Of a stretch of DNA of 64,000 nt, positions 8,427 to 58,152 are shown one piece after another. Made by a program: the position numbers and the translations under genes. The DNA lies in assembly GCA_035526025.1 (NCBI GenBank), contig DATLDE010000011.1:49374-113373 (forward strand), read 5' to 3'. Numbering within the stretch: the stretch's first letter is position 1; each line of letters opens with the position of its first letter. The notes below the pieces were generated by a model. That model saw only the letters and a list, made by a program, of their open reading frames with translations. It was not told the origin of the DNA and searched no databases. The stretch is from Candidatus Limnocylindrales bacterium. GTDB lineage: Bacteria > Patescibacteriota > Microgenomatia > Levybacterales > UBA12049.

Positions 8427-8580
8427 TAGACGTATTATAGACGATTACTAGACGATTGTCAAGTATGTCTCACAATATTTGATTTAAATTAAAGAATACG
8501 AAGAGAAGAGTTGAACTTTTTTGAAGCTAAATTTATAGATTTGCTTACCACAAATAACTGTATGTTCTTATCAAGACAAA

Positions 8581-8607
8581 ATTAGCCCGATATATCAAGC
8601 TATTCGT
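8581..8607. repeat. 27-bp direct repeat, copy 2 (ATTAGCCCGATATATCAAGCTATTCGT)
   Basis: Second copy lies about 30 bp from the 3' end of tRNA-Leu(CAG). Confidence 0.7.
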
Positions 8608-8636
8608 CGCTTTGACAATACTACTATCTTCTCATG

Positions 8637-8719
8637 TGCCCAGGAGAGGAGTTGAACCTCCACGCCCTTGCGAGCACTGGCACCTGAAGCCAGCGTGTAT
8701 ACCATTTCACCACCTGGGC
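8637..8719 (-). tRNA. tRNA-Leu (anticodon CAG)
   Basis: Reverse complement is GCCCAGGTGGTGAAATGGTATACACGCTGGCTTCAGGTGCCAGTGCTCGCAAGGGCGTGGAGGTTCAACTCCTCTCCTGGGCA. Long variable arm. Confidence 0.8.
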
Positions 8720-8809
8720 ATGACAGGCTTATTCTAACGCCAAGCATAATTTTAACAGAAGATGATACAGTTGACAACGGAGGTGAATTTTGCAAATATA
8801 TAGTAGCCC

Positions 8810-9376
8810 ATGAGAAAGTTATTACTTGCCTCAATCCTCCTGGCAATCACTCCGCTTGCCATGATCCTTGGCCTCGTCGTCTTCTTAAATAGCTATAGCC
8901 AGACAGCCCAACCAATCACATACCGCGAAACCGTCGCGTACGCAGCGCTCCCATCTGATCAAAACATTATTTCAGGGAATATAATTGAAAGTCAGAACGG
9001 CAAAGCTGAAAAAATCAGACAATTTTTAGCTCGATACAATTCACCACTTGAGCCTTATTCAGTTGACATTGTAAATGCAGCAGAAGAGTATGGCCTTGAT
9101 CATAGGTTAATTCCGGCAATTGCCATGCAGGAGTCTACACTTTGTAAAAAAATACCCGTAAATTCTTTTAATTGTTGGGGATTTGGGATTTATGGAACCA
9201 AGGTAACAAGATTTGCTGACTTTAAAGAGGGTATTTATACCGTAACAAGGGCACTTGCTACAAGATATAAGAAAAGAGGACTTGTAACAGCCGATCAAAT
9301 AATGACTATGTACACCCCAAGTAGTAATGGTAGTTGGGCAAGAGGTGTAAATACAGTCCTCAATCAGCTTCAGTAA
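8810..9376 (+). CDS. secreted/membrane-anchored GH73-like glucosaminidase-domain protein (FlgJ-like), paralog 1
   Basis: N-terminal TM/signal. FLARYNSPLEPYSVDIVNAAEEYGLDHRLIPAIAMQES...NCWGFGIYG resembles the FlgJ glucosaminidase core (FLARL..P...A.QES.WG...NLFGIK). Confidence 0.45.
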   Translation: MRKLLLASILLAITPLAMILGLVVFLNSYSQTAQPITYRETVAYAALPSDQNIISGNIIESQNGKAEKIRQFLARYNSPLEPYSVDIVNAAEEYGLDHRLIPAIAMQESTLCKKIPVNSFNCWGFGIYGTKVTRFADFKEGIYTVTRALATRYKKRGLVTADQIMTMYTPSSNGSWARGVNTVLNQLQ

Positions 9377-9551
9377 ATCGATCACATCTTATAGTTTGGT
9401 ACTTGACAAACCTATAGTTATATGATATTATCCCTTCCAGATCCTAAGGCAAGTGCCCAAAACACTTGCGTTAGGATTTTTTTTAATAAAAATTAAATAG
9501 CATCTCTATTCTCACCAATACCAATCTTACAAGATTTTTCCAATACTTATT

Positions 9552-10100
9552 ATGAAAAAAATTTTATTTTTAATACTTTGCGCTTTATTTTTTCAGAATG
9601 CAGACCCTACTTTTGCCAAAACACCTATTGCACGATCATCTGCAAAATTAGTTGTATCTAATAGCTTACCTAAGAAGGATAGGCGTGCTGAAATACTTGA
9701 ACAATTCCTTATTGAGCGAGGGTCTCCACTTGCGCCGCATGCTCAGACATTTATAGACGAGGCTGATAAAAATAAGATTGACTGGAAGCTAGTCGTTGCC
9801 ATTTCAGGCAACGAATCTCAATTTGGTCTTCTGATCCCACCATATTCCAATAATGGATGGGGTTATGGAGTTTATGGGAACAATGTCAGAAATTTTGCGT
9901 CATGGGATGAGGGAATTGTAGTTGTATCAAAAGCATTGAGAAAAGACTATTTGGATATGTGGGGCGCAACAAATATTTATGAAATAGGAGCTATTTACGC
10001 AGAAGATCCGTTATGGGCAAATAAAGTAAGCTACTATTTAACACTCATTGAAGAATACGATTCGGAACCTTCGAACACTTCTATTTCAATTTCTCTATAA
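9552..10100 (+). CDS. secreted GH73-like glucosaminidase-domain protein, paralog 2
   Basis: Signal peptide. Same motif layout as 8810..9376 (QFLIERGSPLAPHAQTFIDEADKNKIDWKLVVAISGNES...NGWGYGVYG). Confidence 0.45.
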   Translation: MKKILFLILCALFFQNADPTFAKTPIARSSAKLVVSNSLPKKDRRAEILEQFLIERGSPLAPHAQTFIDEADKNKIDWKLVVAISGNESQFGLLIPPYSNNGWGYGVYGNNVRNFASWDEGIVVVSKALRKDYLDMWGATNIYEIGAIYAEDPLWANKVSYYLTLIEEYDSEPSNTSISISL

Positions 10101-10105
10101 ATATT

Positions 10106-11827
10106 CTATAATAATATTGTCTTTTCGTGGTTCCAGTCAAAATGCGTAGCATTTTGATAGAGGAGCAACCGACGAAAAGCCGCAATCCGAATGCAATGAG
10201 GATAAAGGCTGCAGTCGAGTTGTGACGAGCGGACGTGGTGAAATGGTAGACACGCAAGTTTTAGGAACTTGTGCTCAAAAGGCTTGGAGGTTCGAGTCCT
10301 CTCGTCCGCACACAACAGTACAGTCTCATCCTTAAACCCTCGAATAGCCTGATATAACGGGCTAATCTTATGATTCAATGTACCATTATAGCTCCAAGCT
10401 AATCCTTCAGGGAACATTGAACCAAGCAGTACCTTAGCCTGACTTTGATTTGATCTTTTGTAAGCTTCCCCAAGATCTGCTAAGAGTGTCTTTATAAAAG
10501 ACGTAACTTTATCAATATTGTAATTCTCCATCGTTGCGTCATCTTTACTGATCAAAACTTGAGTAATTTGGTTTTCAATAGTTGCGTTTTGCTCCTTAAA
10601 GATTTCATCAGAATATACACCTGAAAGGTTTTTCTCAACTAACTGTTTTCTAAGAGCTTTAAGCCTCACTATCTCATCATCAGCATTATTTTTAATCTTA
10701 AGTAGCCTTGAATATCTTGCATGGTATGTCTTGTAAAGACAGGTTATGAAAAGATTAAGGCATTCTGTTTTGGGAGTAACTTCTTTGAGTAAATTTATCA
10801 GGACATTATCAAGATCATTTGTTTTAATTGATTTACTATTGCAGGGTTTACCACAGCGGTAATATTGATATTTAATGTGTCGCCCCTTACTCCATGCACC
10901 AGTTAAGCCAAATCCGCATTTTGAACACTTTATAATCCGTCTTAGCGGAAAATCAGGGTTAATGTGATTCCTTTTGGCTAAAGCCACTTTATTTGGGTTC
11001 CGACCGTCCAGAATGGCCTGTACCTTATAGAATTGCTCCTCTGTGATCATTGGTACATATTGTCCTTTTACTTCCTCATTGTATGTGTTTGAGGACAGAA
11101 TTCCCATATAAAACTTATTTCTAAAAAGTTCATTTACTCTCTGGCGAAGCAGGGGATACTCTTTTTGTTTACGCATATGCCTCAAGCCCCAGTCATTCAT
11201 AATTTCAGCCATCTCAGAAAGGCTCTTAGTGCCTGTCGCCATAAGATCCCATGCTTTTCTCATACTATCCCAAGCTTTTGGATCTTTTACCGCATAACCT
11301 GTCTGAACCATATAACCAAGAGGCACAGAGCCTGTAACGATCATTCCTGACAAAAACCGTGCTCTAAGCCCATTTCGTGACCTTTCTGAGCGGATATCAT
11401 TATCAAGTTGTGCAAAGCCAGCAAGAATTGTCTCAACCAGCTTTTCTGTTGGACTTTCTCCAGTTGGCTCGGAAATTGAAACAACATTTGCTCCGTATTC
11501 AGCAAGTTTTTTCCTTATACTTAAATAATCAGCAGTTATTCTTGAAATCCTATCTATTCTATAGACAAATACAGCTTGAACCCTATTCTTGTTTTTCCGG
11601 CAATACTCAAGTAGATTAATCAGAACAGGTCTTCCGGTTATGTTTTTAGCAGAACGCCCCTCTTCTCTAAATATTTCAATCACGTCATAGCCTCTTTTCT
11701 CCGCTTCTTTTCTGCACATACCCTCTTGGGTATCCAGGGAGAAGTTATCAACCTGCTCCTCAGTTGATACCCGAATGTAGATTACTGCTCTTTTCCCATC
11801 AGCATAAATTGCTTTTTGCGGTCTCAT
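10106..11827 (-). CDS. large serine recombinase (resolvase/invertase N-domain + recombinase domain + zinc ribbon)
   Basis: N-terminus AVIYIRVSTEEQ carries the catalytic Ser. Zinc ribbon: CSKCGFGLTGAWSKGRHIKYQYYRCGKPC. 573 aa. The last roughly 70 codons run antisense through tRNA-Leu(TAG) and beyond. The true C-terminus is uncertain. Confidence 0.8.
   Translation of the reverse strand: MRPQKAIYADGKRAVIYIRVSTEEQVDNFSLDTQEGMCRKEAEKRGYDVIEIFREEGRSAKNITGRPVLINLLEYCRKNKNRVQAVFVYRIDRISRITADYLSIRKKLAEYGANVVSISEPTGESPTEKLVETILAGFAQLDNDIRSERSRNGLRARFLSGMIVTGSVPLGYMVQTGYAVKDPKAWDSMRKAWDLMATGTKSLSEMAEIMNDWGLRHMRKQKEYPLLRQRVNELFRNKFYMGILSSNTYNEEVKGQYVPMITEEQFYKVQAILDGRNPNKVALAKRNHINPDFPLRRIIKCSKCGFGLTGAWSKGRHIKYQYYRCGKPCNSKSIKTNDLDNVLINLLKEVTPKTECLNLFITCLYKTYHARYSRLLKIKNNADDEIVRLKALRKQLVEKNLSGVYSDEIFKEQNATIENQITQVLISKDDATMENYNIDKVTSFIKTLLADLGEAYKRSNQSQAKVLLGSMFPEGLAWSYNGTLNHKISPLYQAIRGFKDETVLLCADERTRTSKPFEHKFLKLACLPFHHVRSSQLDCSLYPHCIRIAAFRRLLLYQNATHFDWNHEKTILL
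10229..10310 (+). tRNA. tRNA-Leu (anticodon TAG)
   Basis: GCGGACGTGGTGAAATGGTAGACACGCAAGTTTTAGGAACTTGTGCTCAAAAGGCTTGGAGGTTCGAGTCCTCTCGTCCGCA. Long variable arm. Confidence 0.8.
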
Positions 11828-12837: not shown

Positions 12838-13629
12838 TTATTTTATACTTTCCCAAATACTTCCAGTTACGCCATTTGCTATTACATCCTCAGCTGTTGC
12901 GAACATGATTGATAACTCATCAGTGTTATCTTCCTCAAGTATTCTTTTAGTATAGCGTTTTGCATAAATCATCCTTTCCTTTGTTCCTCCGACAAAAAAT
13001 ATCATGGGAAAAGGTGAATTTATGTGGTTTTCCCACTCATTACTGTAGTAAAAATCTTTGTATGCGCGTATTCGTTTTCGTATTCTGTAATATGGAAGTT
13101 TCTCATCAAAAATAGTCAGTAGGAAGTATTGTATTTTTTTGCCCTTTTCTTTTTTAGAAAAACATATATCAACCGACAGATCAGAGTTTTTTAAAAATTT
13201 AAAGTCACTATCTTCATTACAGATATCGCTTTCGGTTGAATATGTGCGAGTTACGGTATCATTGTTTTTCCTCTCAAGCTCGCAGCAAATTCTAGAGATA
13301 AGTAAACAGTGTTGAATAAAGCTATCAGAGCGGGTCTTATCCCAGTAGAGTTTATGAATAAAATTTGTGTCATATTTTCCTTTTGCTTTTATATATCTTA
13401 TCCCGTTATTATCCAATGTATAGATTGCCGATATTCTGTTTTTCCCAATGATCGTATTGTCATATATTCTTTTGATGTATTTCTTCTCTGTTAGGTCTTT
13501 TAACCAGTTATTTATTCTTGCCTCGTCTTTGTGATTGAGGAGGGATTGGATATGTTGTCTGTTGAGGAATCTGTATCGTGGAATTAGTGTTGTTATTTCT
13601 TGTTGTTTGTTAGTTATGTTAGGTATCAT
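12838..13629 (-). CDS. replication-relaxation (Replic_Relax) family-like protein
   Basis: 263 aa. N-terminal wHTH-like region (LIPRYRFLNRQHIQSLL...WLKDLTEKKYIKRIY). Family call is tentative. Confidence 0.4.
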   Translation of the reverse strand: MIPNITNKQQEITTLIPRYRFLNRQHIQSLLNHKDEARINNWLKDLTEKKYIKRIYDNTIIGKNRISAIYTLDNNGIRYIKAKGKYDTNFIHKLYWDKTRSDSFIQHCLLISRICCELERKNNDTVTRTYSTESDICNEDSDFKFLKNSDLSVDICFSKKEKGKKIQYFLLTIFDEKLPYYRIRKRIRAYKDFYYSNEWENHINSPFPMIFFVGGTKERMIYAKRYTKRILEEDNTDELSIMFATAEDVIANGVTGSIWESIK

Positions 13630-13788: not shown

Positions 13789-16548
13789 TTAAATATATTG
13801 TTGTTTTATAGTTTTTATTCCTTTTTTAACCCCGTTTGTTTTTACTGTGAGCTTACTTGCTTCTAGCAATTGCTTATCTTTTTTTTCAGAGTCTGTTTTC
13901 TTTGTGTTTCCTTTTGTAGGTACTGCTTTGAACAATTTTTCCAGTTGCTTTTCAACATCTGCTTTTGGAGTCGCATAGTGTGCCCTTGAATTCTCAATAA
14001 TCTTTTTTGCTGTTTTGTCACTCCCTTGTTCTGTTACGGGTAACGTAACGCCTGAAAATGCATCTTCTGAATGCTCATTGGTCACTTTCATATAGAAGTG
14101 GTGTGGCGCAAGATTAACTATTGCCCCTTTTTCTACTTCCGGCTCAAGGAAGGGTAGAAGGATTTTTTCATCATCAGGTCCGTTTTTAAGAGCAATTAAG
14201 TTTCCACTATTACTTAAAACTATCTTTGATAATTTTGGATCTTCAATTTGGGCAATATTTTGATGAGACGGCGTGAAGTAAACATGATACTTTCTTGCTT
14301 CTGAAAAAAGATCAGTAAAATGCGCACTTGCAAAGTTTTGAAATTCATCGATATAAACATAGAAATGAGATCTATCTTTTTCCGGTATTGCGGCTCTGGC
14401 ATATACAGCCAGTTGGATAAGGGAAAGTATTAGCGTGCCAAAGAACGCACTCCGCTCTTCTCCAAGCTTCCCTTTTGAGAGATTTACCAGAAGAATTTTA
14501 CCCTTATCCATTATTGCTGAAATGTTAATTGTTGTATTTTTCTGAAGTAAGATATTTCTTGACAATTTATCTGTCATAAATTCACCCAGTTTGTTGGTCA
14601 AGGGGGAGGCAGCATCTGCCTGCTGAATTTTGCCATATGAGCTATACTCTTTTTCCCAGAATTGCTTTAATACAGGATCAGTAAGAGTTTGAGTAACAGT
14701 TCTTCTATAGTCCTTATCAGTTAACAGTTTTTGAATTGCCATTAAAGAAATGTATGGAGTCTCAGGAGTCGGAGTATGTACCTGGAGTGCAGTAAGCGTG
14801 GCATTTCTGAGGATATGCTCCATTTTCTGACCCCAATGCTTCTCTGGTGTTATTTTCATAAATACAGCCATTAATGACCTGGCAATGAAACCATGCTCCT
14901 CATCAATATCTGAGAATTTTATATCTGGGGAGAGTATATTAAGTCCCAATGGAAAATCTTTATCAGAAGGATTAATTAGGACTACATCTTTCAATCTGTG
15001 TTTGGGGATAAGAGTCAGTAAATGCTCAATCAAATCCCCATGAGGATCAAGAATTGCAATCCCTTTCCCATTTTGAATGTCTTGTAGTGCCATACCTTCA
15101 ATAATGGTTGTTTTACCCATACCTGTTTTACCGACAATGTACGTGTGCTCCTTTTTATTCTTATCAGTTAACCCTACTTCAGTTTTTTCTCCACCATAAT
15201 TATTTGTACCAACTACAACGTCAAACTGCGTTGCTGTTTTTTTAAATGAATGAGGAGCAGGTAGTTCCTTACTTTTGCTTTTAACCATATCCTCAGTTTT
15301 GGTTGTTTGAGTGTAAGGCAAGTGATAGATGCTTGAGAGTTCTGTAACTGATAAGAAAATTGTATGGGAAAAAGAAAGGAGCCTGTTACCAAGTTGGTAG
15401 ACAGAAAAGAGTAAAATATATTGTTTTATTCTTTTAGGAATGAATGATGAAAAAACTGTGTGACGCGGAATAATTGCCTGATACTGGGCATTATCAAATG
15501 TTGAAAGTGTTGCCTGGAACCCCCTTATCCTCTCCCTAACAATATTCGAGTTATTTCCAATAACAAGAAGTCGCATGCTTGTTTCAAACACAGGAAGTTG
15601 TAACTTATCCTGTACCTGCTGAAACAATACTTGTTGAGTAGCTGTTGGGGTAAAGACTTTCTTGGGCTTTGCCTCATAATTATTACGTGGAGCTGGTTGG
15701 TTACTGCTACTTCTCAGTGCAATATCAGCAAAAAAACCAATAATTCCAACTAATAACCCAAGAGTCCAATAAATTAATTTACTAATTACATTAATTGGAA
15801 AAACAATGACTGAAAGCAATCTATTCTTTTGAATAATTGGTGAAATATCCTTATTGTGCCAGAGGTGATTTAGTAGCTTATCTGCCTCCTGTGTTTTTGC
15901 CCTATTACTTGCCTTGTCCATAGGAGAAAGGATTAATTGCAGGGAAATAAGCTCCTGTGGTGCAAGCTTTGTCATATTGCCTGTTAGGTATGCAATTGGA
16001 TCATGCTCTCTTAGTTTTGTTTGATCTGTTAGAGGGATAGCGAAGTGGTTTACTAAACGGAATGTTATTAACCGTATAGCTTTACTTGCTGTGAGAAAAT
16101 TTCTTATGCCTTCAAATGATCGCGGAAGATAATCAGCTACCTCCTCTATCTCAACACTTGGTAAGTATGAAAGAAGTGTTTTTCGTATAACTGGGGCATC
16201 AGATTTAGCTGTGTGAATAAGATAACGGATTCCTTCTTCTTTGGTTGCAACAAGCTCAACACTGATTGTTGTTTTGTCATGTATAAATCTTTGCCAGAAT
16301 GTTTTTCCTTTGATTAGCGAATGGAGTTGGGTAAATAACTGCTCTGTAGCATAGGAACTCTGGAGTGTTTGCTTGATTGGTTTAATTGAAAGAACAACAT
16401 GTGGGGTATTGAGTTTCCTTTTTAGCAGTAAATACCTGGAGAGGAGATAAACTATGAGCAAAGTAAATGCTACGCATGAGAGTAATATTAAGTACGCTGG
16501 AAGAACTGCCAGAAATGATATATATTGTGTTGGCATATGCAATATCAA
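13789..16548 (-). CDS. conjugative-transfer-type P-loop ATPase (TraG/TraD/VirD4 coupling-protein-like, or VirB4-like), membrane anchored
   Basis: N-terminal TM helices. Walker A YIVGKTGMGKTTIIEG near residue 480, followed by IAILDPHGDL. Walker B YVYIDEFQNF. Lys-rich C-terminal tail. Confidence 0.6.
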   Translation of the reverse strand: MILHMPTQYISFLAVLPAYLILLSCVAFTLLIVYLLSRYLLLKRKLNTPHVVLSIKPIKQTLQSSYATEQLFTQLHSLIKGKTFWQRFIHDKTTISVELVATKEEGIRYLIHTAKSDAPVIRKTLLSYLPSVEIEEVADYLPRSFEGIRNFLTASKAIRLITFRLVNHFAIPLTDQTKLREHDPIAYLTGNMTKLAPQELISLQLILSPMDKASNRAKTQEADKLLNHLWHNKDISPIIQKNRLLSVIVFPINVISKLIYWTLGLLVGIIGFFADIALRSSSNQPAPRNNYEAKPKKVFTPTATQQVLFQQVQDKLQLPVFETSMRLLVIGNNSNIVRERIRGFQATLSTFDNAQYQAIIPRHTVFSSFIPKRIKQYILLFSVYQLGNRLLSFSHTIFLSVTELSSIYHLPYTQTTKTEDMVKSKSKELPAPHSFKKTATQFDVVVGTNNYGGEKTEVGLTDKNKKEHTYIVGKTGMGKTTIIEGMALQDIQNGKGIAILDPHGDLIEHLLTLIPKHRLKDVVLINPSDKDFPLGLNILSPDIKFSDIDEEHGFIARSLMAVFMKITPEKHWGQKMEHILRNATLTALQVHTPTPETPYISLMAIQKLLTDKDYRRTVTQTLTDPVLKQFWEKEYSSYGKIQQADAASPLTNKLGEFMTDKLSRNILLQKNTTINISAIMDKGKILLVNLSKGKLGEERSAFFGTLILSLIQLAVYARAAIPEKDRSHFYVYIDEFQNFASAHFTDLFSEARKYHVYFTPSHQNIAQIEDPKLSKIVLSNSGNLIALKNGPDDEKILLPFLEPEVEKGAIVNLAPHHFYMKVTNEHSEDAFSGVTLPVTEQGSDKTAKKIIENSRAHYATPKADVEKQLEKLFKAVPTKGNTKKTDSEKKDKQLLEASKLTVKTNGVKKGIKTIKQQYI

Positions 16549-17870: not shown

Positions 17871-18767
17871 ATGATGCAAGCCGAAAGAAGACCGAGCCGA
17901 TATGAGTTTGGTGATCTAAATAGAAGTCTTTTAAAGGATCTTCGCATTGTCCATTTGCCAGAAACCACCAGCACAATGGATTTAGTTGATGGATTAGCCA
18001 GATCATGGGCAAAAACAAAACGCGAATTCATACCCCCAGTTGTAATAATTGCGGATCATCAAACTGCAGGAATCGGCAGAGGAGATTTGGGAGAAGAAAA
18101 AAAGTGGCATGACATACCCGAGCTATCTATGCTTTTTAGCATTTTTATTCCAAAAGACAGAATAGAAGAAGAAAATCTACCCGAGTTATCAGATTTGGTT
18201 GCATTAAGAACATGCATGGCACTTAGAAAAGCAGGAGGAAATTTTCTTATAAAAGCCCCCAATGACATTGTTGACGCAGATACTGGTAAAAAGGTTAGCG
18301 GACTTCTTGTTAGATCGATTTATTCAGATGAAGGAGAATATTTGGGAGCAAATGTTGGAGTAGGTACAAATGTTCATTATAGAGATAATCAATTAGCTAA
18401 TTTTCCTGTGGAACCTGAATATGGAGCAATCTCAGTAGATAGCGCAACTGGTCAATTCAATAGTAGACAAGATTTATTGGTTGATATCTTAACTGGTATT
18501 TCCACAGTTGTTCCGGAAGCCGCCACTATCAATAAGGGAAGTGTTCATAACCCAACATCTGTTCATGCTATACAAAATGCCGAATGGAGAAGGCATTCAT
18601 ATTTACTAAATGAAAGGGTAGTAGTTAGAGAAGGTGAACAAGTCGTAGCCGAGGGAACAGTTGTTGACACAGAAATTGGTAACGGATTTATATTGAGATC
18701 AAATGATGGAATTGAGCATGCGGTACCGGTTTTTGGAACAGATACGAAGGTGAGGTTAGCTTCATGA
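17871..18767 (+). CDS. biotin--protein ligase (BirA-like; BPL catalytic domain + BPL_C-like C-terminus), paralog 1
   Basis: TSTMDLV...VVIIADHQTAGIGRGDLGEEKKWHD is a divergent BirA GRGRxGRxW block. The C-terminus VVVREGEQVVAEGTVVDTEIGNGFILRSNDGIEHAVPVFGTD is SH3-like as in BirA. Confidence 0.6.
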   Translation: MMQAERRPSRYEFGDLNRSLLKDLRIVHLPETTSTMDLVDGLARSWAKTKREFIPPVVIIADHQTAGIGRGDLGEEKKWHDIPELSMLFSIFIPKDRIEEENLPELSDLVALRTCMALRKAGGNFLIKAPNDIVDADTGKKVSGLLVRSIYSDEGEYLGANVGVGTNVHYRDNQLANFPVEPEYGAISVDSATGQFNSRQDLLVDILTGISTVVPEAATINKGSVHNPTSVHAIQNAEWRRHSYLLNERVVVREGEQVVAEGTVVDTEIGNGFILRSNDGIEHAVPVFGTDTKVRLAS

Positions 18768-19186
18768 TTGGTGAAGGATTTAGGAGATTACCCAGACCCG
18801 AAGGAGATGGCCATCCAACTAGAGAAGTACGGGGAAATGTTACTAGAAGTATCGAGCGTTTAAGGCCAGATTCCATAGCAGTTGAGTTAGTGCCACCTCA
18901 TGAGCTTATGCCATTTATTCTTCCTCCAAGTGCCGAAGGGGTAGTGCAAGCAATAGCGGCATTCGCAATCAGTGGAGAAACCCGTACTGCAGTTTGCGAA
19001 TTTGAAGATCGCAGAAACGATACGGTAACAAGAATTACTCTTGAAAATCCAACTGGTGATCCTTTCAACATGAGAATTACCCTTTCCAGTCCAGACAGAG
19101 AAGAAGGAGAAAAAGTACCACCCGGTATTGGCATTAAGGTTGTTGATAAAGAAGGAGCAACTCAAAAAGAGTTAGATAAAAAGTAA
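18764..19186 (+). CDS. hypothetical protein
   Basis: 140-aa ORF overlapping the ligase stop. No recognisable motif. Confidence 0.35.
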   Translation: MIGEGFRRLPRPEGDGHPTREVRGNVTRSIERLRPDSIAVELVPPHELMPFILPPSAEGVVQAIAAFAISGETRTAVCEFEDRRNDTVTRITLENPTGDPFNMRITLSSPDREEGEKVPPGIGIKVVDKEGATQKELDKK

Positions 19187-19263
19187 GACTTTGGAGACGG
19201 CTGAATCCTCGAGAAGATCCTCTTATTCAAGTTGGACAGACAGTTGAGCCTGGAGCTACTCTT

Positions 19264-19446
19264 ATGCTTGCAACAAGAGGCAAAAGTATCAAAAGAAGAA
19301 TAAAACTTCCAAGAGATAAATTTCCCAAGGGAGGTAAAGTTACTGCTATTTACGTTGACCCAGAGGACAACAATGAAGAACTCCGAAAAAAGGGTAAATT
19401 AGTTAATGGTGAATTTGTTCTTGCAGTTATAGATCCAGTTAAATAG
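19264..19446 (+). CDS. small ORF of uncertain status (possible fragment)
   Basis: 60-aa ORF. The frame is open about 78 nt upstream of the ATG without another start codon. KGGKVTAIYVD is KOW/hybrid-barrel-like. Confidence 0.25.
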   Translation: MLATRGKSIKRRIKLPRDKFPKGGKVTAIYVDPEDNNEELRKKGKLVNGEFVLAVIDPVK

Positions 19447-19449
19447 CCT

Positions 19450-22400
19450 ATGCCTGTATCCGTTAAAGAAAGATCAAGAACTCCAGAAGAAGGTGTCCGT
19501 CCGATTCGTAAAATGTTTATTGCAAACCGCGGTGAAATTGCTGTGCGTGCTGCAAAGGCATGTGAGAGAAGAGGGATTGCTGCTGTAATCCCATATTCTG
19601 ATCTTGAGTCCGAAAGAAATTCTTACGCAACTCGTTTTGTGGATAAGAACGCTAACAAAGGCTGGGAATTAGCAGCTATAGAGGGATATAGTGGCGACGA
19701 AACGTATGGAGATCCTAACGCAATACTACAAGAAGCAATTATACATAATTGTGACGCTATTTTTCTTGGATATGGATTTTTAGCAGAAAACGCTGATTTT
19801 GTTAAGCAAGTTGAGGATCATAATGAGGCAAGAAGAAGCCGAGGGGATGAACCTATTCGTTTACTTGCTCCTGATTCACGTGCCATGAGGCTTTTGGGAA
19901 ATAAAGCAAATGCTCGGGAGTTTGTAAACACTGTTAAAGTTGGCCTTGGAAGAAACAGAAGAACAGTGCCCATTGTTGAAGGATCTGATAAGCCTCGAAC
20001 CCAAATTGAAGAACTAATAAGGGATGTTGAGGGGGACGGAAAGAGCAAAGAAGGTATTGGATATCCTGTTATGGTAAAAGCTCCTGATGGAGGTGGTGGA
20101 ATGGGTAATATTGTAGCACGTACTCATGCTGAGCTTGATGCAGCATATAGGGATCTTCGCGGAACAGGAGAAGATCAAGGATTAATTGTTGAGCACTATA
20201 TAGAAAACGCAATTCATGTTGAGATGCAAGTTATTGCTGATCAACACGGTAACGTTGTGATTTTGGGTGAGCGTGATTGCACTCTTCAGAGAAGAAGTCA
20301 AAAACTGGTTGAAGAGTCCCCATCTCCACATATAAATGAACGGCAAAGGAAGAAAATAACTGAAGAATCTGCTGCAATTGTAAAAAAAGCAAAATATTCA
20401 GGACCGGTAACAATTGAAATGATCTTTGATAAAGACAGAGTTGATGAAGACGGGGATATGTGGCATGGTTTCATGGAAGCAAATACACGCTTGCAGGTAG
20501 AGCATGTTGTAACTGAAATTCAGACAGGAATAGATATTGTTGACACAATGATAGATGTTGCAGAAGGTCGTGAGTTAAAATTTAAACAAAAAGACATTAA
20601 GCCTCAAGGACATACTATGGAGCTTCGTGTTTACGCAGAAGATCCTGACCGTAATTTTGAACAACAAGAAGGAATTTTAAATGTATTAAGTCTTCCTGAA
20701 GATGTGGAGGGAGTAAGGATTGATAAAGGATATGAAGAAGGTGATGAAGTATCAGTAGAATACGACGGAACGATATTTAAAATAAATATACATGGCGTAA
20801 CAAGAGCTGACATGCTTGAGCGGACAAGTCAAGTAATTGCAATGTGTGAAATTGCTGGAGTTAAAAATAATCTTGCCTTTCTTGATGAGCTTATTAATAC
20901 ACCAGAATTTCAACGAGGAACAGTGAAAACGAAATTTGTCGAGGAATGGGTAGACCGTAGGCGAAAAGAGGCAAGAGACCAAATAATGAATGAGTTATTG
21001 GGCGAAAATGGAACATTTACTCCATTTCCCCCATCAAAACTTCGTGATAATTTTCCTGTAAATCCAACTTTTAAAACTTCTAACTCTGCTGAATCCACAA
21101 CGCTAGAGGAAAGCCTTGCGCGACAGAAAGAAAAAACAGGATTAGAAAGAGCGTCAGAATATGGAATTGTTGAAAGAGATGGAGTTAGGTACGTATTATA
21201 TCTATTAAATTCCAAATTTAATGCAGGAACATTTGGAAAAGAAGAAGGGTGGATGTTGACCGATGCAATTAAACTTGCACATAAGTACAATCTCCCATTA
21301 ATAACAGATACTTCAACAGCGGGTGTCAGAAACACTGAAGGATCATACGGAATAGATATGATGATGAACTCTACCAGCGATCTAAGTGAATATCCTCCAC
21401 TTTTTCATATTGACATACGGCATGGATACGTATTGGGTGGAGTTCCAGCCTCATATTCTGGAAGAGCCAATTTGTTTATGGCGGTTAATGATGACGCTAC
21501 CAAAATAGGAATAACTGGAGCAAATGCATTGGCTGCTGGAGAGGATTTGCATCCTACTGACTTAGAAGGTAAGTCAAGCACAAAAGCTGCTGACGCATAT
21601 AGAGCATTGAATGAAAACCAAGAAGACGAAGGCGCTCCAGTGCATACTCCCACCCGTCATCACGAGGAAAGAACTGGTGCTGATATGCTGCCAGCAAGTT
21701 TAACAGAAGCTGGGGCAAAGATTAGCCATATATTACAAATTCTAAAATTCACTCATCCCCACATCAGATCAGATCTAGATACACATGTCTTTAGTCCACA
21801 TGAGCAAATAGGATACGGACATATGCCTCACGCTGTTACTCTTTACGATTCAGGTGAACAACGACCCGGTTTTGTGCCCCCAACAATCAGCCGATTATGG
21901 GAAAGGTTTGCGAGTAATAGAGGAAAAGAAAAAATTATTTTTGCACCTGAAACTCCAGAAATCACAATCGGAGAGAGAAGAAGAATAGTAAAGCACCCCG
22001 ATAGACCTACAGGTCTTGACCTTGTTGATACTGGTTCCGAACTTTTTGATGATGCTGTATTTCTTGATCATGTAACTTTTGTCGATAATGTACACCAAGT
22101 TCTTCCCATTACCTCGGCCTTAGTTCGCTTTGGTGATCACCCAATTTTAGTGGTTACTCAAAATCGTCAAGAGAGAATCAATGACGCTGGAGAAAGAGAA
22201 ATATATTACAAACCAATTCGTCCTACTGATTGGGAAGCCACAAAACGTCATCTTCAATGGGCAGAAAATGTAGGTATCACAGTTATGCTAATGGGCGACA
22301 CTTCAGGAGCAGATTCAAGTAGGCAGGCTGAAGACCGGGGACAAGAAATTAAGCTCGCCGAAATATCGCAATTTGTTCAACAGCTAAAAGTGCCAGTAAT

Positions 22401-22875
22401 TACTAATCAATCTGGACTAGGGGGAAGTGGTAGTGTTCTTCCCTTTAGTTGGTATGGAGATTATGCAGCCATGTGGGAGAATGCCACAAGGTGGCCAGCC
22501 GATGCCCCAGCAATGAGAAGCTTTATTGAAGGAGTCTCTCTTCTTAAAGAATCAGACGCAACAGCAGAGGAGATAGCAGCACTTGATTTATTTGCAGCTC
22601 AATTTATCGATGTTACTGCTGAAGCGCATCTAGCAAAAGGTAGGATTGATAAAATACTTCTAGAAGGACCCGGAGGTGCGCATATAAACCCAAGAATAAT
22701 TGTTGATAGTAACAGGGAGATGTTGAGAGACGTGTTACCAAAATTACGACAAAGATATCTTGACGGCACTTTACTTGAAGAAAGAAGGAGAAGAAAAGAG
22801 CATGTTGCATTGATTGGCTCCAGACCAAATCCAGACTATGCAGCACAAGTTGCTGAATTAGAAGAAAGACTTTAA
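19450..22875 (+). CDS. biotin carboxylase - carboxyltransferase fusion protein (acyl-CoA carboxylase-like BC + PccB/AccD-like CT), no BCCP domain
   Basis: BC motifs MFIANRGEIAVRAAKACERRGI, GYPVMVKAPDGGGGMGNIVA, ERDCTLQRRSQKLVEESPSP, FMEANTRLQVEHVVTE. First CT subdomain PLITDTSTAGVRNTEG...GGVPASYSG. Second CT subdomain VPVITNQSGLGGSGSV. No (A/V)MKM biotinyl motif anywhere in the 1141 aa. Confidence 0.7.
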   Translation: MPVSVKERSRTPEEGVRPIRKMFIANRGEIAVRAAKACERRGIAAVIPYSDLESERNSYATRFVDKNANKGWELAAIEGYSGDETYGDPNAILQEAIIHNCDAIFLGYGFLAENADFVKQVEDHNEARRSRGDEPIRLLAPDSRAMRLLGNKANAREFVNTVKVGLGRNRRTVPIVEGSDKPRTQIEELIRDVEGDGKSKEGIGYPVMVKAPDGGGGMGNIVARTHAELDAAYRDLRGTGEDQGLIVEHYIENAIHVEMQVIADQHGNVVILGERDCTLQRRSQKLVEESPSPHINERQRKKITEESAAIVKKAKYSGPVTIEMIFDKDRVDEDGDMWHGFMEANTRLQVEHVVTEIQTGIDIVDTMIDVAEGRELKFKQKDIKPQGHTMELRVYAEDPDRNFEQQEGILNVLSLPEDVEGVRIDKGYEEGDEVSVEYDGTIFKINIHGVTRADMLERTSQVIAMCEIAGVKNNLAFLDELINTPEFQRGTVKTKFVEEWVDRRRKEARDQIMNELLGENGTFTPFPPSKLRDNFPVNPTFKTSNSAESTTLEESLARQKEKTGLERASEYGIVERDGVRYVLYLLNSKFNAGTFGKEEGWMLTDAIKLAHKYNLPLITDTSTAGVRNTEGSYGIDMMMNSTSDLSEYPPLFHIDIRHGYVLGGVPASYSGRANLFMAVNDDATKIGITGANALAAGEDLHPTDLEGKSSTKAADAYRALNENQEDEGAPVHTPTRHHEERTGADMLPASLTEAGAKISHILQILKFTHPHIRSDLDTHVFSPHEQIGYGHMPHAVTLYDSGEQRPGFVPPTISRLWERFASNRGKEKIIFAPETPEITIGERRRIVKHPDRPTGLDLVDTGSELFDDAVFLDHVTFVDNVHQVLPITSALVRFGDHPILVVTQNRQERINDAGEREIYYKPIRPTDWEATKRHLQWAENVGITVMLMGDTSGADSSRQAEDRGQEIKLAEISQFVQQLKVPVITNQSGLGGSGSVLPFSWYGDYAAMWENATRWPADAPAMRSFIEGVSLLKESDATAEEIAALDLFAAQFIDVTAEAHLAKGRIDKILLEGPGGAHINPRIIVDSNREMLRDVLPKLRQRYLDGTLLEERRRRKEHVALIGSRPNPDYAAQVAELEERL

Positions 22876-22877
22876 AT

Positions 22878-23726
22878 ATGAAAACAGAAGCTGCAATTAG
22901 TGTTCGACCTTATACCGAATATGATCAGAATAGAGTCAGATCTGCAGTGGGAGCATTGGGATACGATTTTCAATACCGTCAGATCACTGGAACCACCATG
23001 GATGATGCTCTGTCTTCGGAAAGACCTACTGTTTGGGTTGCTGATAGTCAAAGAAATGGCCGAGGAAGAACAGGAAATAGATGGGAAGACACATCAAAAG
23101 CAAATGTTCTGGTAACAGTTGCCGTCGACCGGATAAAACTTTCAAATCCTTTACTGCTTCCTCAGCTTGGTGCATTGGCTGCCTGCAGGGCTGCCAGAAC
23201 AGTTACAAAAAGTGATGCTCCTCAGATACGTTGGCCCTATGACCTAGAAATTGATGGTAAAAAGTTCGGGGGAGTATTGGTCGAACAAAAGGTTTCTGCA
23301 ACCGGAAAACCGTTAACCTTAATTGGCGTTGGAATGGATGTACATGATCAGTCTTTTCCTCAATTTCCTTGGGAAGCAGTAGCTCTTGAACAAGTACAAG
23401 GCATTGAATCAATAGATAGGAACGCACTATTAATTGAATTTACAAAAGAGTTAACTAGCCTGCTAGATATAATCGATATTGTTGATACTGATCCGCAAGC
23501 ATACGCAACATGGAACAACATTTGGATAGCTCATCAAAGCTTAGGAGGAAAACATGTTATAGCAGAGAATATCGGTCCAGATAAATTTGGGGACGTGGAG
23601 GGAATTGCAAGGGTACCTATGCTAGGAAGAGGGCTTGATTTAGTCACAACAGGTTTCGATGGATTGGAAAAAACTGTTACGGTTTCAAGCTGGAATCCCC
23701 TCTCTTTAATTAGAAACTTGGAATAA
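22878..23726 (+). CDS. biotin--protein ligase (BirA-like), paralog 2
   Basis: QRNGRGRTGNRWEDTSKANVLVTVAV matches the BirA signature GRGRxGRxW..G.xL. It has a C-terminal SH3-like domain. Its start lies 3 nt after the BC-CT stop. Confidence 0.65.
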   Translation: MKTEAAISVRPYTEYDQNRVRSAVGALGYDFQYRQITGTTMDDALSSERPTVWVADSQRNGRGRTGNRWEDTSKANVLVTVAVDRIKLSNPLLLPQLGALAACRAARTVTKSDAPQIRWPYDLEIDGKKFGGVLVEQKVSATGKPLTLIGVGMDVHDQSFPQFPWEAVALEQVQGIESIDRNALLIEFTKELTSLLDIIDIVDTDPQAYATWNNIWIAHQSLGGKHVIAENIGPDKFGDVEGIARVPMLGRGLDLVTTGFDGLEKTVTVSSWNPLSLIRNLE

Positions 23727-23730
23727 AAAT

Positions 23731-24360
23731 ATGCCAGTTGAACAAGCAAGGAACGTTTTCGTACTCGACATCGGTCAAGTCCTTGCCGACGGTGGACGGG
23801 AATATTTCACAAGAAGAAAAGGACAATTTAGTTTTAGAGATAGAGCCTCTCTTGCTATTGTTTATGATGATTTTGTTCCCCTACCAGGTTCGATAGAGGG
23901 AGTAGGTGCGCTTTCCAAAGTTGCTACATTTGGCGGATATTATACGGTAAGACCTCCAGAGTTAAAACAACAAGGAACCAACTGGTTGACCCGTTATAAT
24001 TTCCCTGATGCAGAAAATATCCATACCTGTGTAAATCACGAAGATAAAGTAAGACAAATTATCAATGATTTACTCTTGAATGAAGATGGCCAAAATAACA
24101 GAAGCGTTGTACTGATTGATGATAACTTGGACCCTTTACTATCCGCAGCTGAAAAACTGGTAGACCAAGACCCCCCCCTCAAGCAAGCAACTGAAAAATT
24201 AATTCTTGTAGGATTTGGAAAAAAACATCAAGATATGCCTCAAGGAGGAGTACATCTTGCAACAGGCATTAGAACATTCTCGCTTTCTTCCTGGGAAAAC
24301 CAGAATAGAGATGATCTTATTGGAGACTTGCAAATGTTATATCAGAGCCATTCAGGTTGA
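23731..24360 (+). CDS. hypothetical protein (degenerate HAD-like motifs)
   Basis: VFVLDIGQVL and VVLIDDNLDPL resemble HAD motifs I and IV, but motif I lacks the second Asp. Confidence 0.35.
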   Translation: MPVEQARNVFVLDIGQVLADGGREYFTRRKGQFSFRDRASLAIVYDDFVPLPGSIEGVGALSKVATFGGYYTVRPPELKQQGTNWLTRYNFPDAENIHTCVNHEDKVRQIINDLLLNEDGQNNRSVVLIDDNLDPLLSAAEKLVDQDPPLKQATEKLILVGFGKKHQDMPQGGVHLATGIRTFSLSSWENQNRDDLIGDLQMLYQSHSG

Positions 24361-24418
24361 TATGGCAATAAATTTACATTTGCAGTAATAATTAAGACTA
24401 TGTTATAATGCAAATCTT

Positions 24419-24781
24419 ATGGGAGCTCCACAAGAAAGAAATTGCGAAGCGCTGATTACTTACACTACGGTTAGGAGAGGTCAAGCAAGGTATGAAATTC
24501 TTAAACCACCTGAGGGCATGGAATTAAATTCTACAGGAATGGTTGCGAACAGAGAAGTAATTAGTGGCATAGAAGAGGTTTGCATAAATTGTGGGAGATG
24601 TGGAATTGATAATGTAAAGCGCAGGTCATCAGATAATAAACATCCATGGTCTGCTGCTGTTGGCGCAGAAAGACTAGCGGCCCAAGTACTTGAAGACCAA
24701 TGTCAGCCTTTTCAACCCCTGAAGGAATTGGGATTAAAGCCAAATAAAGATTTCCATCCAATGCTTACTCATATAAAATAG
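24419..24781 (+). CDS. hypothetical protein with CxxCxxC cluster
   Basis: 120 aa. CINCGRCG. Confidence 0.3.
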   Translation: MGAPQERNCEALITYTTVRRGQARYEILKPPEGMELNSTGMVANREVISGIEEVCINCGRCGIDNVKRRSSDNKHPWSAAVGAERLAAQVLEDQCQPFQPLKELGLKPNKDFHPMLTHIK

Positions 24782-26186: not shown

Positions 26187-27212
26187 CTATTTATTATCTT
26201 CTTCCCGCAATACTTTTTTTATCTCTTCAATTGTTAAACGTTTTTCAAGTTGCAATTGCCGAATACGCTTGACTACATCAATCGCTGAATGCTCATACAA
26301 TTGGTATCCACTTGGAGTATGATCTTTTGCGTTTAGTAATCCCTCTTTGGTCCAGAAGCGTAATGTGTGAATTGTCTCTCCTGTTTTCTTGGCAAGGCTT
26401 CCTATTTTTAAAAGTTCTTCTTGTGGTTGAGTCTCAAACTCTTTAAATACGGCGTTCTTTTTACTAAGTGCGTTTAGGTATATATCAAGTGATCTTTCAA
26501 CAGAGGTAAAGATAATTGTATAAAAGGGCTGCATGTCTTTTTTATTTTGTGCTGATTCAAATGAGTTAAGATATGCAGTTCTTTCTTCATTTCGTATAAT
26601 ACCCATTGGGTACCCATTCAGCAAAAGAATTAAGTTCATTAATAGTCTAGTTGTACGCCCATTTCCGTCAATAAATGGATGAATACTGACAAACTTCATA
26701 TGAGCATCCGCTGCGATTTTAACAGGATGATCATCTTGTTGTGCCTGAAGCCAACTGATGAAATTGCGCATTTCGATATGTAGAGAATTGGGCATGGGAA
26801 ATTCTGCATTTGAGCCACGAATAAAAACCTCAGTCAACCTGTATTTACCTGCCCAGTTATCGTCAATACCGGTCAAAATAATTTTATGAATGTCCAAGAT
26901 GTCTTTTTCAGTAATAAATTGATGGCTTTTTCGTGTCCGCGCTAACTGATTTATGAAATCAAGCGCTTTTGCGTGATTAATTGCTTCTATTTGATCTTTT
27001 AGAGGTTTACCATTTATAACAGCTGTTATGCCCCTCTCGATCACCTCTGCAGTTTCAATACGTGTTAAGGTGTTGCCTTCAATAGCGTTTGAGGAATATG
27101 TAAGCTCAACTTTTAGCCATTCTTCAATATTCTTTCGTAATTCCGGGGGAATTGGCTGATGAGAGTCCAGCTGCTTTTTTTTCTTAGTTAGCCTTAGAAG
27201 TAGATTATCCAT
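26187..27212 (-). CDS. Fic/DOC family protein fused to a C-terminal MerR-type HTH
   Basis: HPFIDGNGRTTRLLMNLILL is the Fic motif. An AIEGN inhibitory motif is present. The C-terminus LLKIGSLAKKTGETIHTLRFWTKEGLL is MerR-like HTH. Confidence 0.75.
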   Translation of the reverse strand: MDNLLLRLTKKKKQLDSHQPIPPELRKNIEEWLKVELTYSSNAIEGNTLTRIETAEVIERGITAVINGKPLKDQIEAINHAKALDFINQLARTRKSHQFITEKDILDIHKIILTGIDDNWAGKYRLTEVFIRGSNAEFPMPNSLHIEMRNFISWLQAQQDDHPVKIAADAHMKFVSIHPFIDGNGRTTRLLMNLILLLNGYPMGIIRNEERTAYLNSFESAQNKKDMQPFYTIIFTSVERSLDIYLNALSKKNAVFKEFETQPQEELLKIGSLAKKTGETIHTLRFWTKEGLLNAKDHTPSGYQLYEHSAIDVVKRIRQLQLEKRLTIEEIKKVLREEDNK

Positions 27213-27263: not shown

Positions 27264-27461
27264 TTAATCACGCCTGACCCAAAACTCTAGAACACGTCTT
27301 TTCTGGGGATCAATAGTGATTTTGTCCCAATATTTCTTAAGATGTTTTGTATCAATTTTCTCTCCCTCTAAACCATAATTTATCAATTGCTCAAGCTTCC
27401 AAATAACATGTTTTTCAGAATTTTTCTCAAGTATTGCTGTGTCCGTACTCCAATTATGCAT
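27264..27461 (-). CDS. small hypothetical protein upstream of the Fic-MerR gene
   Basis: 65-aa Lys/Glu-rich ORF in the same orientation as the Fic gene. Uncertain. Confidence 0.3.
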   Translation of the reverse strand: MHNWSTDTAILEKNSEKHVIWKLEQLINYGLEGEKIDTKHLKKYWDKITIDPQKRRVLEFWVRRD

Positions 27462-27572
27462 AAGTCTATTCTACCAGATCCTAAGCGAATATTCAGCATA
27501 AACGGATGGCCTCAATTTAGCCTCAAAACAGCACTTGACAGAAATGGGCCACATTATGTATACTTCTTGTAT

Positions 27573-27845
27573 ATGAATACAACATCTATACATATAAAAA
27601 TAGAAGCTGATATTAAAGCACAAGCTCAAAAAACAGCAGAAGAACTAGGTCTTTCTTTGAGCGCTGTTATGAAAGCATTGCTCAAACAATTCATTCGCAC
27701 AAAACATTTATCCGTAGGATTAAGCGAAGAGCCTTCTTCCTACATGCTTGAAGCATTAAAAAAATCAGATAAAGAATATAAAGAAGGCAAAACTTCCCCA
27801 AGTTTTACCGCAGTTGAAGACTCTTTCAAATGGCTCGATCAATAA
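27573..27845 (+). CDS. RelB/DinJ-family antitoxin
   Basis: MNTTSIHIKIEADIKAQAQKTAEELGLSLSAVMKALL is an RHH DinJ-like N-terminus. Start at the internal ATG of track ORF 27387..27845. The stop overlaps the toxin start. Confidence 0.6.
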   Translation: MNTTSIHIKIEADIKAQAQKTAEELGLSLSAVMKALLKQFIRTKHLSVGLSEEPSSYMLEALKKSDKEYKEGKTSPSFTAVEDSFKWLDQ

Positions 27846-28258: not shown

Positions 28259-29089
28259 ATGGAAAAATCACAAATTGAACGTCTCAAAGACGGTACAATC
28301 AAATTGACTATTACAATACCAAAAGAAAAGGTCAGTAAAGCCCGAGAGGACGCCATCGTGCATATTGCCAAACAGGCCAATCTCCCTGGATTCAGAAAAG
28401 GAAAAGCCCCAGAAAAACTTGTTGAGGAAAAACTAGATAAAGCCGAGATCCAAGAAGACGTGCTAAAAAATCTACTACCTGCAGCATATCAGGAAGCTGT
28501 ACTTCAGCATCAATTACGTCCAATTATGAGTCCCAAAATTCATATAGAAAAGCTTGAGGAAGACATGGATTGGACTCTTGATGCCATAACTTGTGAAGCA
28601 CCCGTTGTAGAAGCGGGGGATTATAAGACAAGTGTCAAAAACGTGACTGCAAAGAGTAAAATTATAATACCAGGCAAGGAAGAAAAAAAACCTACATTTG
28701 AAGAAATAGCAAAAGCTCTTTTGGAAAAAGCAGAAGTCGCTATTCCGGATGTCCTACTTGAGCAGGAAACAGATAGATTACTGTCTCAACTTCTGGCAGA
28801 CATTAAAAAATTGGGTCTCAATCTTGAACAGTATCTAGCCTCCACTAAAAGAACTCCTGATGACTTAAGGGCTGAGTACGCAAATAGAGCCAGAGATGAC
28901 ATGAAGCTTGAATTTATTCTCCAAAAAATTGCAGAAAATGAGAAAATAACAGTTGAGGACAGAGAAATTGAGGAGGCTATTCAAAAAGCTAAATCTGATG
29001 AAGAAAGAAAACATCTTGAGGGAAATAGATATATGCTGGCTGCAATACTCAGGCAACAAAAAACACTTGATTTTCTTATGGGACTGTGA
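28259..29089 (+). CDS. tig: trigger factor (N- and C-domains only, no PPIase domain)
   Basis: GFRKGKAPEKLVEE is the TF ribosome-binding signature GFRxGxxP. 276 aa with no FKBP-like segment. Confidence 0.65.
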   Translation: MEKSQIERLKDGTIKLTITIPKEKVSKAREDAIVHIAKQANLPGFRKGKAPEKLVEEKLDKAEIQEDVLKNLLPAAYQEAVLQHQLRPIMSPKIHIEKLEEDMDWTLDAITCEAPVVEAGDYKTSVKNVTAKSKIIIPGKEEKKPTFEEIAKALLEKAEVAIPDVLLEQETDRLLSQLLADIKKLGLNLEQYLASTKRTPDDLRAEYANRARDDMKLEFILQKIAENEKITVEDREIEEAIQKAKSDEERKHLEGNRYMLAAILRQQKTLDFLMGL

Positions 29090-55547: not shown

Positions 55548-55588
55548 TCGCCCGTACTAGTGTCAACCTTATTTAAATAGAATTAAGC

Positions 55589-56146: not shown

Positions 56147-56176
56147 TTAACTTTAGGAAATCTATATAATTCTAGA

Positions 56177-58142: not shown

Positions 58143-58152
58143 CTTTCAGAAG

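Follow-up and report, generated by a model that had tools for sequence, protein, structure and literature searches.

A candidate acetyl-CoA-carboxylase-like operon with a fused AccC-AccD-AccA protein and a putative biotin carrier in trans

Gene content of the operon and its fusion protein

The DNA analysed here is a 64-kb stretch (the window) of contig DATLDE010000011.1 from assembly GCA_035526025.1 (positions 49,374 to 113,373), in which an operon for a biotin-dependent carboxylase is located. All coordinates are those of the whole window, and features lie on the + strand unless stated otherwise. Six tightly packed, co-directional open reading frames (ORFs) of the + strand span positions 17871-24781. 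The first encodes a biotin protein ligase (BPL) of group I type (BPL 1; 17871-18767, 298 amino acids, aa), which is also the first gene of a module conserved in related loci. It is followed by a small gene at 18764-19446, which is split over two reading frames and would encode a protein of about 227 aa when repaired, and which is referred to below as the carrier gene. The third gene (19450-22875) encodes a 1141-aa fusion of a biotin carboxylase (BC) and a carboxyltransferase (CT) of the AccC-AccD-AccA type, lacking a biotin carboxyl carrier protein (BCCP) domain, and the fourth encodes a second BPL-family protein (BPL 2; 22878-23726, 282 aa). Taken together, these genes probably encode a compact system resembling acetyl-CoA carboxylase (ACC), with AccC, AccD and AccA fused in one chain, a divergent BCCP supplied in trans and a dedicated ligase encoded upstream.

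Genes are closely spaced throughout the operon. The start codon of the carrier gene overlaps the stop codon of BPL 1 (ATGA), and the last stop codon of the carrier gene lies only 3 nt ahead of the ATG of the fusion gene. The two last ORFs (23731-24360, 209 aa; 24419-24781, 120 aa) are of unassigned function and showed no Pfam or NCBIfam match; they may form the tail of the operon of the fusion and BPL 2, and no homologue of either was found in the related loci. A scan of the operon for promoters and terminators yielded fewer matches than shuffled sequences and was hence uninformative.

The BC part of the fusion is complete. Pfam matches to Biotin_carb_N (1e-18), CPSase_L_D2 (1e-47) and Biotin_carb_C (9e-27) were obtained at residues 19-499, and the BC domain as delimited by Pfam and NCBIfam together covers residues 19-503 (19504-20958). 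Comparison with solved biotin carboxylases (8hz5) gave an E value of 2e-78 with the catalytic motifs aligned, and the motifs GGGG.G, HVE.Q, ERDC..QRR.QK..EE.P and E.NTR.QVEH are intact and conserved across the 38 family members. The CT part consists of two crotonase-fold halves, the N-terminal one resembling AccD and the C-terminal one AccA. The AccD-like half was recognised by a weak Carboxyl_trans/AccD match of Pfam and NCBIfam at residues ~551-703 (21100-21558), and the AccA-like half by the ACCA family of Pfam at residues 839-1115 (6e-21; 21964-22794). When a profile of the CT part was compared with the PDB, AccA chains scored between 7e-31 and 2e-26 and AccD chains between 3e-13 and 3e-11, both outscoring PccB-type beta subunits by a wide margin. 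The match to AccD began near AccD residue 96-124, and no counterpart of the N-terminal region of AccD was detected in the fusion by profile or alignment.

An initial annotation of this DNA had already described the fusion of a BC with both CT halves as unusual and as devoid of a BCCP in cis, and both statements were borne out: Biotin_lipoyl (PF00364) was found neither in the fusion nor in any of its 37 full-length homologues. The same annotation had regarded the oxyanion hole of the first CT half as altered, a view that did not hold. The sequence GGVPASYSG of the fusion aligned with GGVSASFAS of S. aureus AccD and with GGVTASYPS of another solved AccD, so that it is a normal beta-subunit motif of the form GGV(S/T/P)AS; the earlier comparison had been made with the motif of the alpha subunit.

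The carrier gene and its relatives

The carrier gene lies between the genes of BPL 1 and the fusion. Its N-terminal part is encoded in frame A (18764-19186, 140 codons, stop codon TAA at 19184-19186) and its C-terminal part, a BCCP-like biotinyl domain of about 87 aa, in frame B (19180-19446, stop codon at 19444-19446), with the frame-B translation including the sequence ...VRLWRRLNPREDPLIQVGQTVEPGATLMLATRGKSIKRRIKLPRDKFPKGGKVTAIYV... If only the 140-aa ORF is considered, an apparent gap of 263 bp (19187-19449) separates it from the fusion gene. The frames meet at the site T-AAAAA-G-TAA (19177-19186), which contains both a frame-B stop codon (19177-19179) and the frame-A stop codon, and they can be joined only within the run of five A and the G that follows it (19178-19183). 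A single ORF of 227 aa results if one A is added or if the ribosome slips by -1 on AAA-AAG, and the repaired protein aligned across the junction with its closest relatives, those of loci L003, L004 and L011. A hidden Markov model (HMM) of the family, built without the window, matched frame A with its positions 6-110 (E 7e-7) and frame B with its positions 115-190 (E 5e-18), the two halves abutting at the A run. The initial annotation had stated that no recognisable accB lay in the window and had treated the carboxylase as carrier-less. The gene was overlooked because sequence divergence and the frameshift hid it; it is immediately adjacent to the fusion, as the same annotation had in part anticipated by suggesting a trans-acting or non-canonical carrier.

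Relatives of the fusion were found in a search of 5.8 billion clustered proteins, which yielded 37 full-length homologues (37-55% identity), all comprising BC plus CT. Their source names were Levybacteria and Patescibacteria, while the protein of the window itself is deposited as 'Candidatus Limnocylindrales bacterium'; given these homologues and the GC and gene content of the window (see below), that label of the metagenome-assembled genome may be wrong. A search with the CT part alone among 1.84 billion representative proteins returned only 12 clusters at E <= 1e-30; in about 20 proteins of 950-1150 aa the CT was located in the C-terminal half, and the next in rank had the size of AccD-AccA or of AccA. 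Five loci were found when one genome from each of 185,579 species was scanned, a scan of JGI metagenomes added six more, and 12 distinct related loci were retained after removal of duplicates (L001-L008, L011, L013, L014 and L016). In all 12, each with a readable neighbourhood, the genes follow the order ligase, small protein, BC-CT fusion. The small proteins of these loci have 182-229 aa and no Pfam hit, and each is encoded by one intact ORF (12 of 12).

Several lines of comparison relate the C-terminal domain of the small proteins to BCCP. By eye and in alignments, their last ~85 residues track E. coli BCCP, beginning at the strand that precedes the 'thumb' and ending at the C-terminus. A nine-member profile matched E. 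coli BCCP chains in the PDB (1bdo, 3bdo, 1a6x, 8uxz_B and 4hr7_B) with E values of 6e-4 to 3e-3; these matches spanned the whole domain of 75-80 residues and placed the lysine of the family on the biotinyl lysine. The one hit of this profile that ranked higher was to an RNA polymerase beta', whose barrel-sandwich repeats have a related fold and were matched at scattered positions with low scores. A profile of 19 members matched only BCCPs of ACC among solved proteins (E up to 1), with values of 6e-3 to 3e-2, and Pfam Biotin_lipoyl matched three of nine members (best 4.5e-4). An hhalign comparison with 77 biotinyl domains, taken from the alpha subunits of methylcrotonyl-CoA and propionyl-CoA carboxylases (MCC/PCC), plus E. 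coli BCCP gave a probability of 81-84%, an E value of about 1e-5 (best 7.6e-6) and scores of 36-37, while 20 column-shuffled controls scored at most 15.8. In an AlphaFold2 (AF2) model of the frame-B domain (pLDDT 67.6), the lysine of the family (Lys34) was positioned in a three-residue turn between strands 26-32 and 36-41. Foldseek searches of the PDB with this model returned barrel-sandwich-hybrid proteins, including the BCCP domains of pyruvate carboxylases; E. coli BCCP was matched with a probability of 1.00 in chain 4hr7_G (TM score 0.50/0.56, 28% identity) and of 0.99 in 1bdo.

The 19 carrier sequences share only five invariant columns. One of these is a lysine located on the biotinyl lysine, or within two residues of it, whose codon in the window lies at 19282-19284 (within ATRGKSIK). 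Across the 19 sequences the surrounding motif is G/T/S-K-x in place of E-x-M-K-M, the biotinylation motif that has been described as highly conserved (PMC11077971). A scan of all six frames of the window for (A/V)MKM was negative, in agreement with the initial annotation. Carboxyl transfer depends on the flanking methionines more than ligase recognition does, and their absence is therefore compatible with biotinylation, though unusual.

Taken together with the invariable neighbourhood of a protein ligase and a BC-CT fusion that lacks a carrier, the profile and fold comparisons make the C-terminal domain well supported as a divergent, BCCP-like biotin carrier acting in trans. The support for the carrier fold itself is moderate, and the canonical motif is lacking from the domain. 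A canonical BCCP elsewhere in the window was sought with the six-frame motif scan and with an HMM of the 77 biotinyl domains plus E. coli BCCP and was rejected, both scans being negative; the frame-B ORF was the only weak top hit of this HMM among the six-frame ORFs. The frame-A part of the carrier showed no Pfam or NCBIfam hit, and no relatives of the N-terminal 110-130 residues of the carrier were detectable. When the repaired carrier was used directly as a query, nothing beyond the 140-aa ORF of the window itself was retrieved, a result that reflects the limit of the word index, and nine relatives were recovered by an alignment-based search.

Ligases, proposed mechanism and alternatives

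That both ORFs flanking the carboxylase belong to the BPL family was confirmed. PF03099 (BPL_LplA_LipB) matched BPL 1 (9e-9) and BPL 2 (3e-13) above its curated cut-off, and TIGR00121 (birA_ligase) matched them with 59 and 70.5 bits, respectively, below its cut-off. PF02237 (BPL_C) showed no hit at E up to 0.1 in either protein; both have a C-terminal extension of about 100 residues with G.G motifs that are conserved family-wide. The labels 'divergent' for the upstream and 'canonical' for the downstream ligase, under which the two had been introduced, proved misleading. The biotin loop of BPL 1, GIGRGDLGEEKKW, contains an insertion of four residues that is common to its closest relatives, and the G-x-G-R and K-W elements are kept. 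Its catalytic Lys128 is likewise kept (IKAPNDIV, compared with IKWPNDV of the P. horikoshii BPL), and this lysine is present in all orthologues of the family. BPL 1 is 31-51% identical to the ligases preceding the carrier in the related loci and departs from only one of 37 family-invariant columns. On this sequence evidence BPL 1 is identified as the orthologue of the ligase present in every related locus and as the conserved partner of the carrier.

BPL 2 showed the reverse pattern, departing from 11 of the 37 columns. Its loop is canonical (GRGRTGNRW), but IRWPYDL aligns with LKWPNDV of the A. aeolicus BPL, so that the K and N of KWPND are replaced by Arg118 and Tyr121, and GVGMDV stands in place of GIGxNV. 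The lysine of KWPND is conserved throughout the biotin and lipoate ligase superfamily; BPL 2, which lacks it, is therefore predicted to be catalytically impaired, altered in its chemistry or non-catalytic. BPL 2 was also considered as a normal housekeeping ligase, a reading rejected on account of the missing catalytic lysine. The protein is 28% identical to BPL 1 and was found only in the window, none of the other loci compared having a second ligase. A second carrier that might serve as its client was sought with the family carrier HMM, which found one split gene only. The presence of two unexplained ligases, as it had been put initially, thus applies in part: since BPL 1 is the dedicated partner of the carrier, the puzzle shrinks to a single unexplained paralogue, BPL 2.

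In the mechanism proposed for this system, BPL 1 would adenylate biotin and attach it to the invariant lysine in the hairpin of the carrier. The BC domain would carboxylate the tethered biotin with ATP and bicarbonate, and the carrier would then swing to the CT, where CO2 would be transferred onto acetyl-CoA, or another short acyl-CoA, to yield malonyl-CoA. Acetyl-CoA is proposed as the substrate solely because both CT halves are closest to AccA and AccD of the ACC type and not to PccB. The malonyl-CoA would probably feed a small pathway of the fatty-acid or polyketide type, because genes for a FabH-like protein and a reductase-dehydratase adjoin the fusion gene in several relatives. The FabH-like gene (ACP_syn_III_C / Chal_sti_synt_N) lies downstream of the fusion in one clade of the relatives, at loci L001, L007, L008, L013 and L014, and in L001, L007 and L014 it is accompanied by a gene for a fusion of a short-chain dehydrogenase/reductase (SDR) with FabA (550 aa). 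The respective regions cover 11213-14541 in L001, 7653-10936 in L007, 7244-8353 in L008, 8705-9814 in L013 and 6083-8905 in L014. The named relatives are Patescibacteria, which are usually regarded as lacking fatty-acid synthesis; a malonyl-CoA-forming enzyme beside FabH-like and reductase-dehydratase genes in several of these relatives hints at a small lipid or polyketide pathway there.

Compared with the multi-subunit ACC of E. coli and S. aureus (AccA/B/C/D), the system of the window has all four modules, a typical AccC as BC and a CT resembling AccD and AccA. Its carrier is likewise free-standing, with an N-terminal region ahead of a C-terminal biotinyl-type domain, and among solved structures the nearest relatives in sequence are BCCP chains of E. 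coli. It differs in that AccC, AccD and AccA are joined in this order in one chain, that the carrier has ..GK.., ..TK.. or ..SK.. for E-x-M-K-M and that the ligase is encoded within the same operon. BC and CT also share one polypeptide in eukaryotic ACC, in the actinobacterial long-chain acyl-CoA carboxylase (LCC) and in AccADCB (PDB 9kkm, 1517 aa), the last of which was among the hits of the CT profile. Those enzymes, however, contain BCCP in cis, usually alongside BT or central domains, and their domains are ordered differently, whereas the carrier of the window is encoded in trans. Partially fused ACCs, such as those of Chloroflexus aurantiacus and the actinobacterial enzymes with an alpha subunit of BC-BCCP and a beta subunit of CT, resemble the present system in that components are fused in varied combinations and in their BirA-type biotinylation. 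In C. aurantiacus, BC-BCCP occurs with separate CT-beta and CT-alpha (PMC11077971), and the window, with BC-CTbeta-CTalpha and a lone BCCP, has the reverse partition. As regards the ligases, both resemble the group I BPLs of P. horikoshii and A. aeolicus in lacking an N-terminal helix-turn-helix and in aligning over the catalytic module, and they differ from them by the four-residue insertion in the biotin loop of BPL 1 and by the arginine of BPL 2 in place of the invariant lysine.

The literature consulted, whose coverage is incomplete so that this is absence of evidence only, contained no description of a BC-CTbeta-CTalpha fusion with a free BCCP, and nothing specific on ACC in bacteria of the candidate phyla radiation. 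The operon would accordingly represent an unreported and very rare partition of the four ACC components, with a ligase in the same operon. A BCCP family that lacks the flanking methionines and has its own ligase would also be a natural test case for the requirements of the M-K-M motif and of recognition between ligase and carrier.

A number of observations weigh against this interpretation. The likeness between the carrier and BCCP is weak in absolute terms, with E values of 6e-4 to 6e-3 in the PDB comparisons and of 0.03-0.3 in Foldseek, and the register of the hairpin shifts by two residues between two hhalign alignments. The near-universal (A/V)MKM motif is absent from the carrier, and model confidence was low both for its domain (67.6, as given above) and for a full-length relative; the latter model, of the intact orthologue P0127, had a pLDDT of 49.5 and was too poor for use. 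Substrate and activity are predictions from sequence. The 64 kb were searched for FabH, acyl carrier protein (ACP), BioY or another user of malonyl-CoA with negative results: of about 48 ORFs of the window scanned with Pfam, none encoded BioY, ACP, a Fab protein or a further biotin enzyme, and the FabH-like, SDR-FabA and PAP2 neighbours of the related loci are likewise absent from it. The glycine motif of the alpha half reads GLGGSGSV in the fusion of the window (22435-22458, residues 996-1003; G996 to V), compared with GxKGSGGG in most family members, GEGGSGGA in E. coli AccA and GSGSG in the relative P0032. Finally, not all components are present as intact ORFs in the window, the ORF of the carrier being broken, and the break recurs in an independent Logan assembly of SRR8554898, in which the same ORFs, of 140 aa and 60 aa, were predicted.

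Three origins of the frame change remain, namely a homopolymer miscall (a run of six A read as five), a recent inactivating mutation, or low-level slippage on AAA-AAG beside the stop codon. The split in the second assembly indicates that it is not an artefact of one assembler, but both assemblies may rest on the same reads. A full-length carrier could be made only if the run consists of six A or if ribosomes slip; otherwise the system would be freshly inactivated here. It is possible, though doubtful, that the locus is decaying, the carrier gene being a true pseudogene, BPL 2 lacking its catalytic lysine and the operon making no working carboxylase. Besides the recurrence of the break, this would be in keeping with frame B, in which no in-frame ATG, GTG or TTG precedes the ATG at 19264, a start that would remove the first strands of the carrier domain; with the substitutions K118R, N121Y and N to D in conserved motifs of BPL 2; with the lack of downstream pathway genes in the window; and with the departure of the fusion from 14 of 164 highly conserved columns, including G996V. 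The latter changes are mostly conservative, however, and other members of the sparsely sampled clades show 9-25 departures, so that the fusion of the window lies within their range. Apart from the frame change, the fusion, BPL 1 and the two carrier halves are intact and retain the catalytic motifs, and the only lesion is located in a homopolymer; no clear decay is evident in the remainder of the operon.

The frame change might instead be functional, a programmed or tolerated -1 frameshift on U-AAA-AAG setting the ratio of full-length carrier to the 140-aa N-terminal product. The only place at which the frames can be joined is AAA-AAG directly before a stop codon, and AAA-AAG is the slippery pair for Lys-tRNA used in dnaX. 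The heptamer is nevertheless imperfect, with U and not A at its first position, the predicted fold of the RNA beyond the site is no better than that of shuffled sequences (z = +1.58), offering no stimulatory structure, and the carrier gene is a single ORF in all related loci. A conserved programmed frameshift is therefore unlikely, and we regard a regulatory role of the slip at this locus as improbable. It appears more improbable still that the carboxylase dispenses with a carrier, using free biotin or a route without biotin, and that the small protein is unrelated to carboxyl transfer. The absence of a BCCP in cis from every family member, the missing AMKM motif and the only moderate similarity of the small protein to BCCP would be compatible with this. 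However, every one of the 12 loci has a protein ligase next to the small protein and the fusion, an arrangement that would have no purpose unless some protein is biotinylated; an invariant lysine is present in the small protein, and among solved proteins its 19-member profile matched BCCPs of ACC alone. The reading of the locus as an ACC-like system with its carrier in trans was therefore retained. A more far-reaching version of it appears unlikely, in which the operon would encode a minimal, lineage-specific carboxylase, found mostly in genomes labelled as Patescibacteria, whose carrier, free of M-K-M, has a co-evolved private ligase, BPL 2 would either sense biotin or regulate without catalysis or be a ligase with altered chemistry, and the A run would be a real switch of carrier expression.

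Genomic surroundings

Further genes adjoin the conserved module in some of the related loci. A gene for a PAP2-family phosphatase lies divergently and immediately upstream of the ligase gene in six of them (L002 5746-6411, L003 5722-6264, L005 5865-6593, L006 2171-2851, L011 1-329 and L016 1924-2685). Locus L001 additionally carries a PEPcase_2 gene. In L016, the most divergent locus, a stand-alone BC paralogue of 557 aa, about 29% identical to the BC part, is encoded directly downstream of the fusion (8276-9949).

In the window, genes of mobile elements are located just upstream of the operon, between 10106 and 16548. They encode a large serine recombinase on the - strand (10106-11827), the 3' end of which overlaps a tRNA-Leu(tag) gene on the other strand (10229-10311), a Replic_Relax protein (12838-13629) and a coupling protein of the VirD4/TrwB type (13789-16548). 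An integrated element may carry the carboxylase operon as cargo; no convincing att-type direct repeats that would bound such a mobile island were found. The GC content of the operon (0.40-0.42) is slightly above that of its flanks, and that of the window is about 38% (range 0.32-0.42). Downstream of the operon, a Fic-MerR protein (26187-27212) and a RelB-like antitoxin (27387-27845) are encoded. The former is one of two Fic/DOC-domain proteins of the window with C-terminal DNA-binding domains, MerR in this case and HTH_24-like in the other (7392-8426). Also encoded in the window are a trigger factor of 276 aa (28259-29089) that lacks a PPIase domain, as well as a DUF5660 protein and a type IV pilus cluster (53653-59453).

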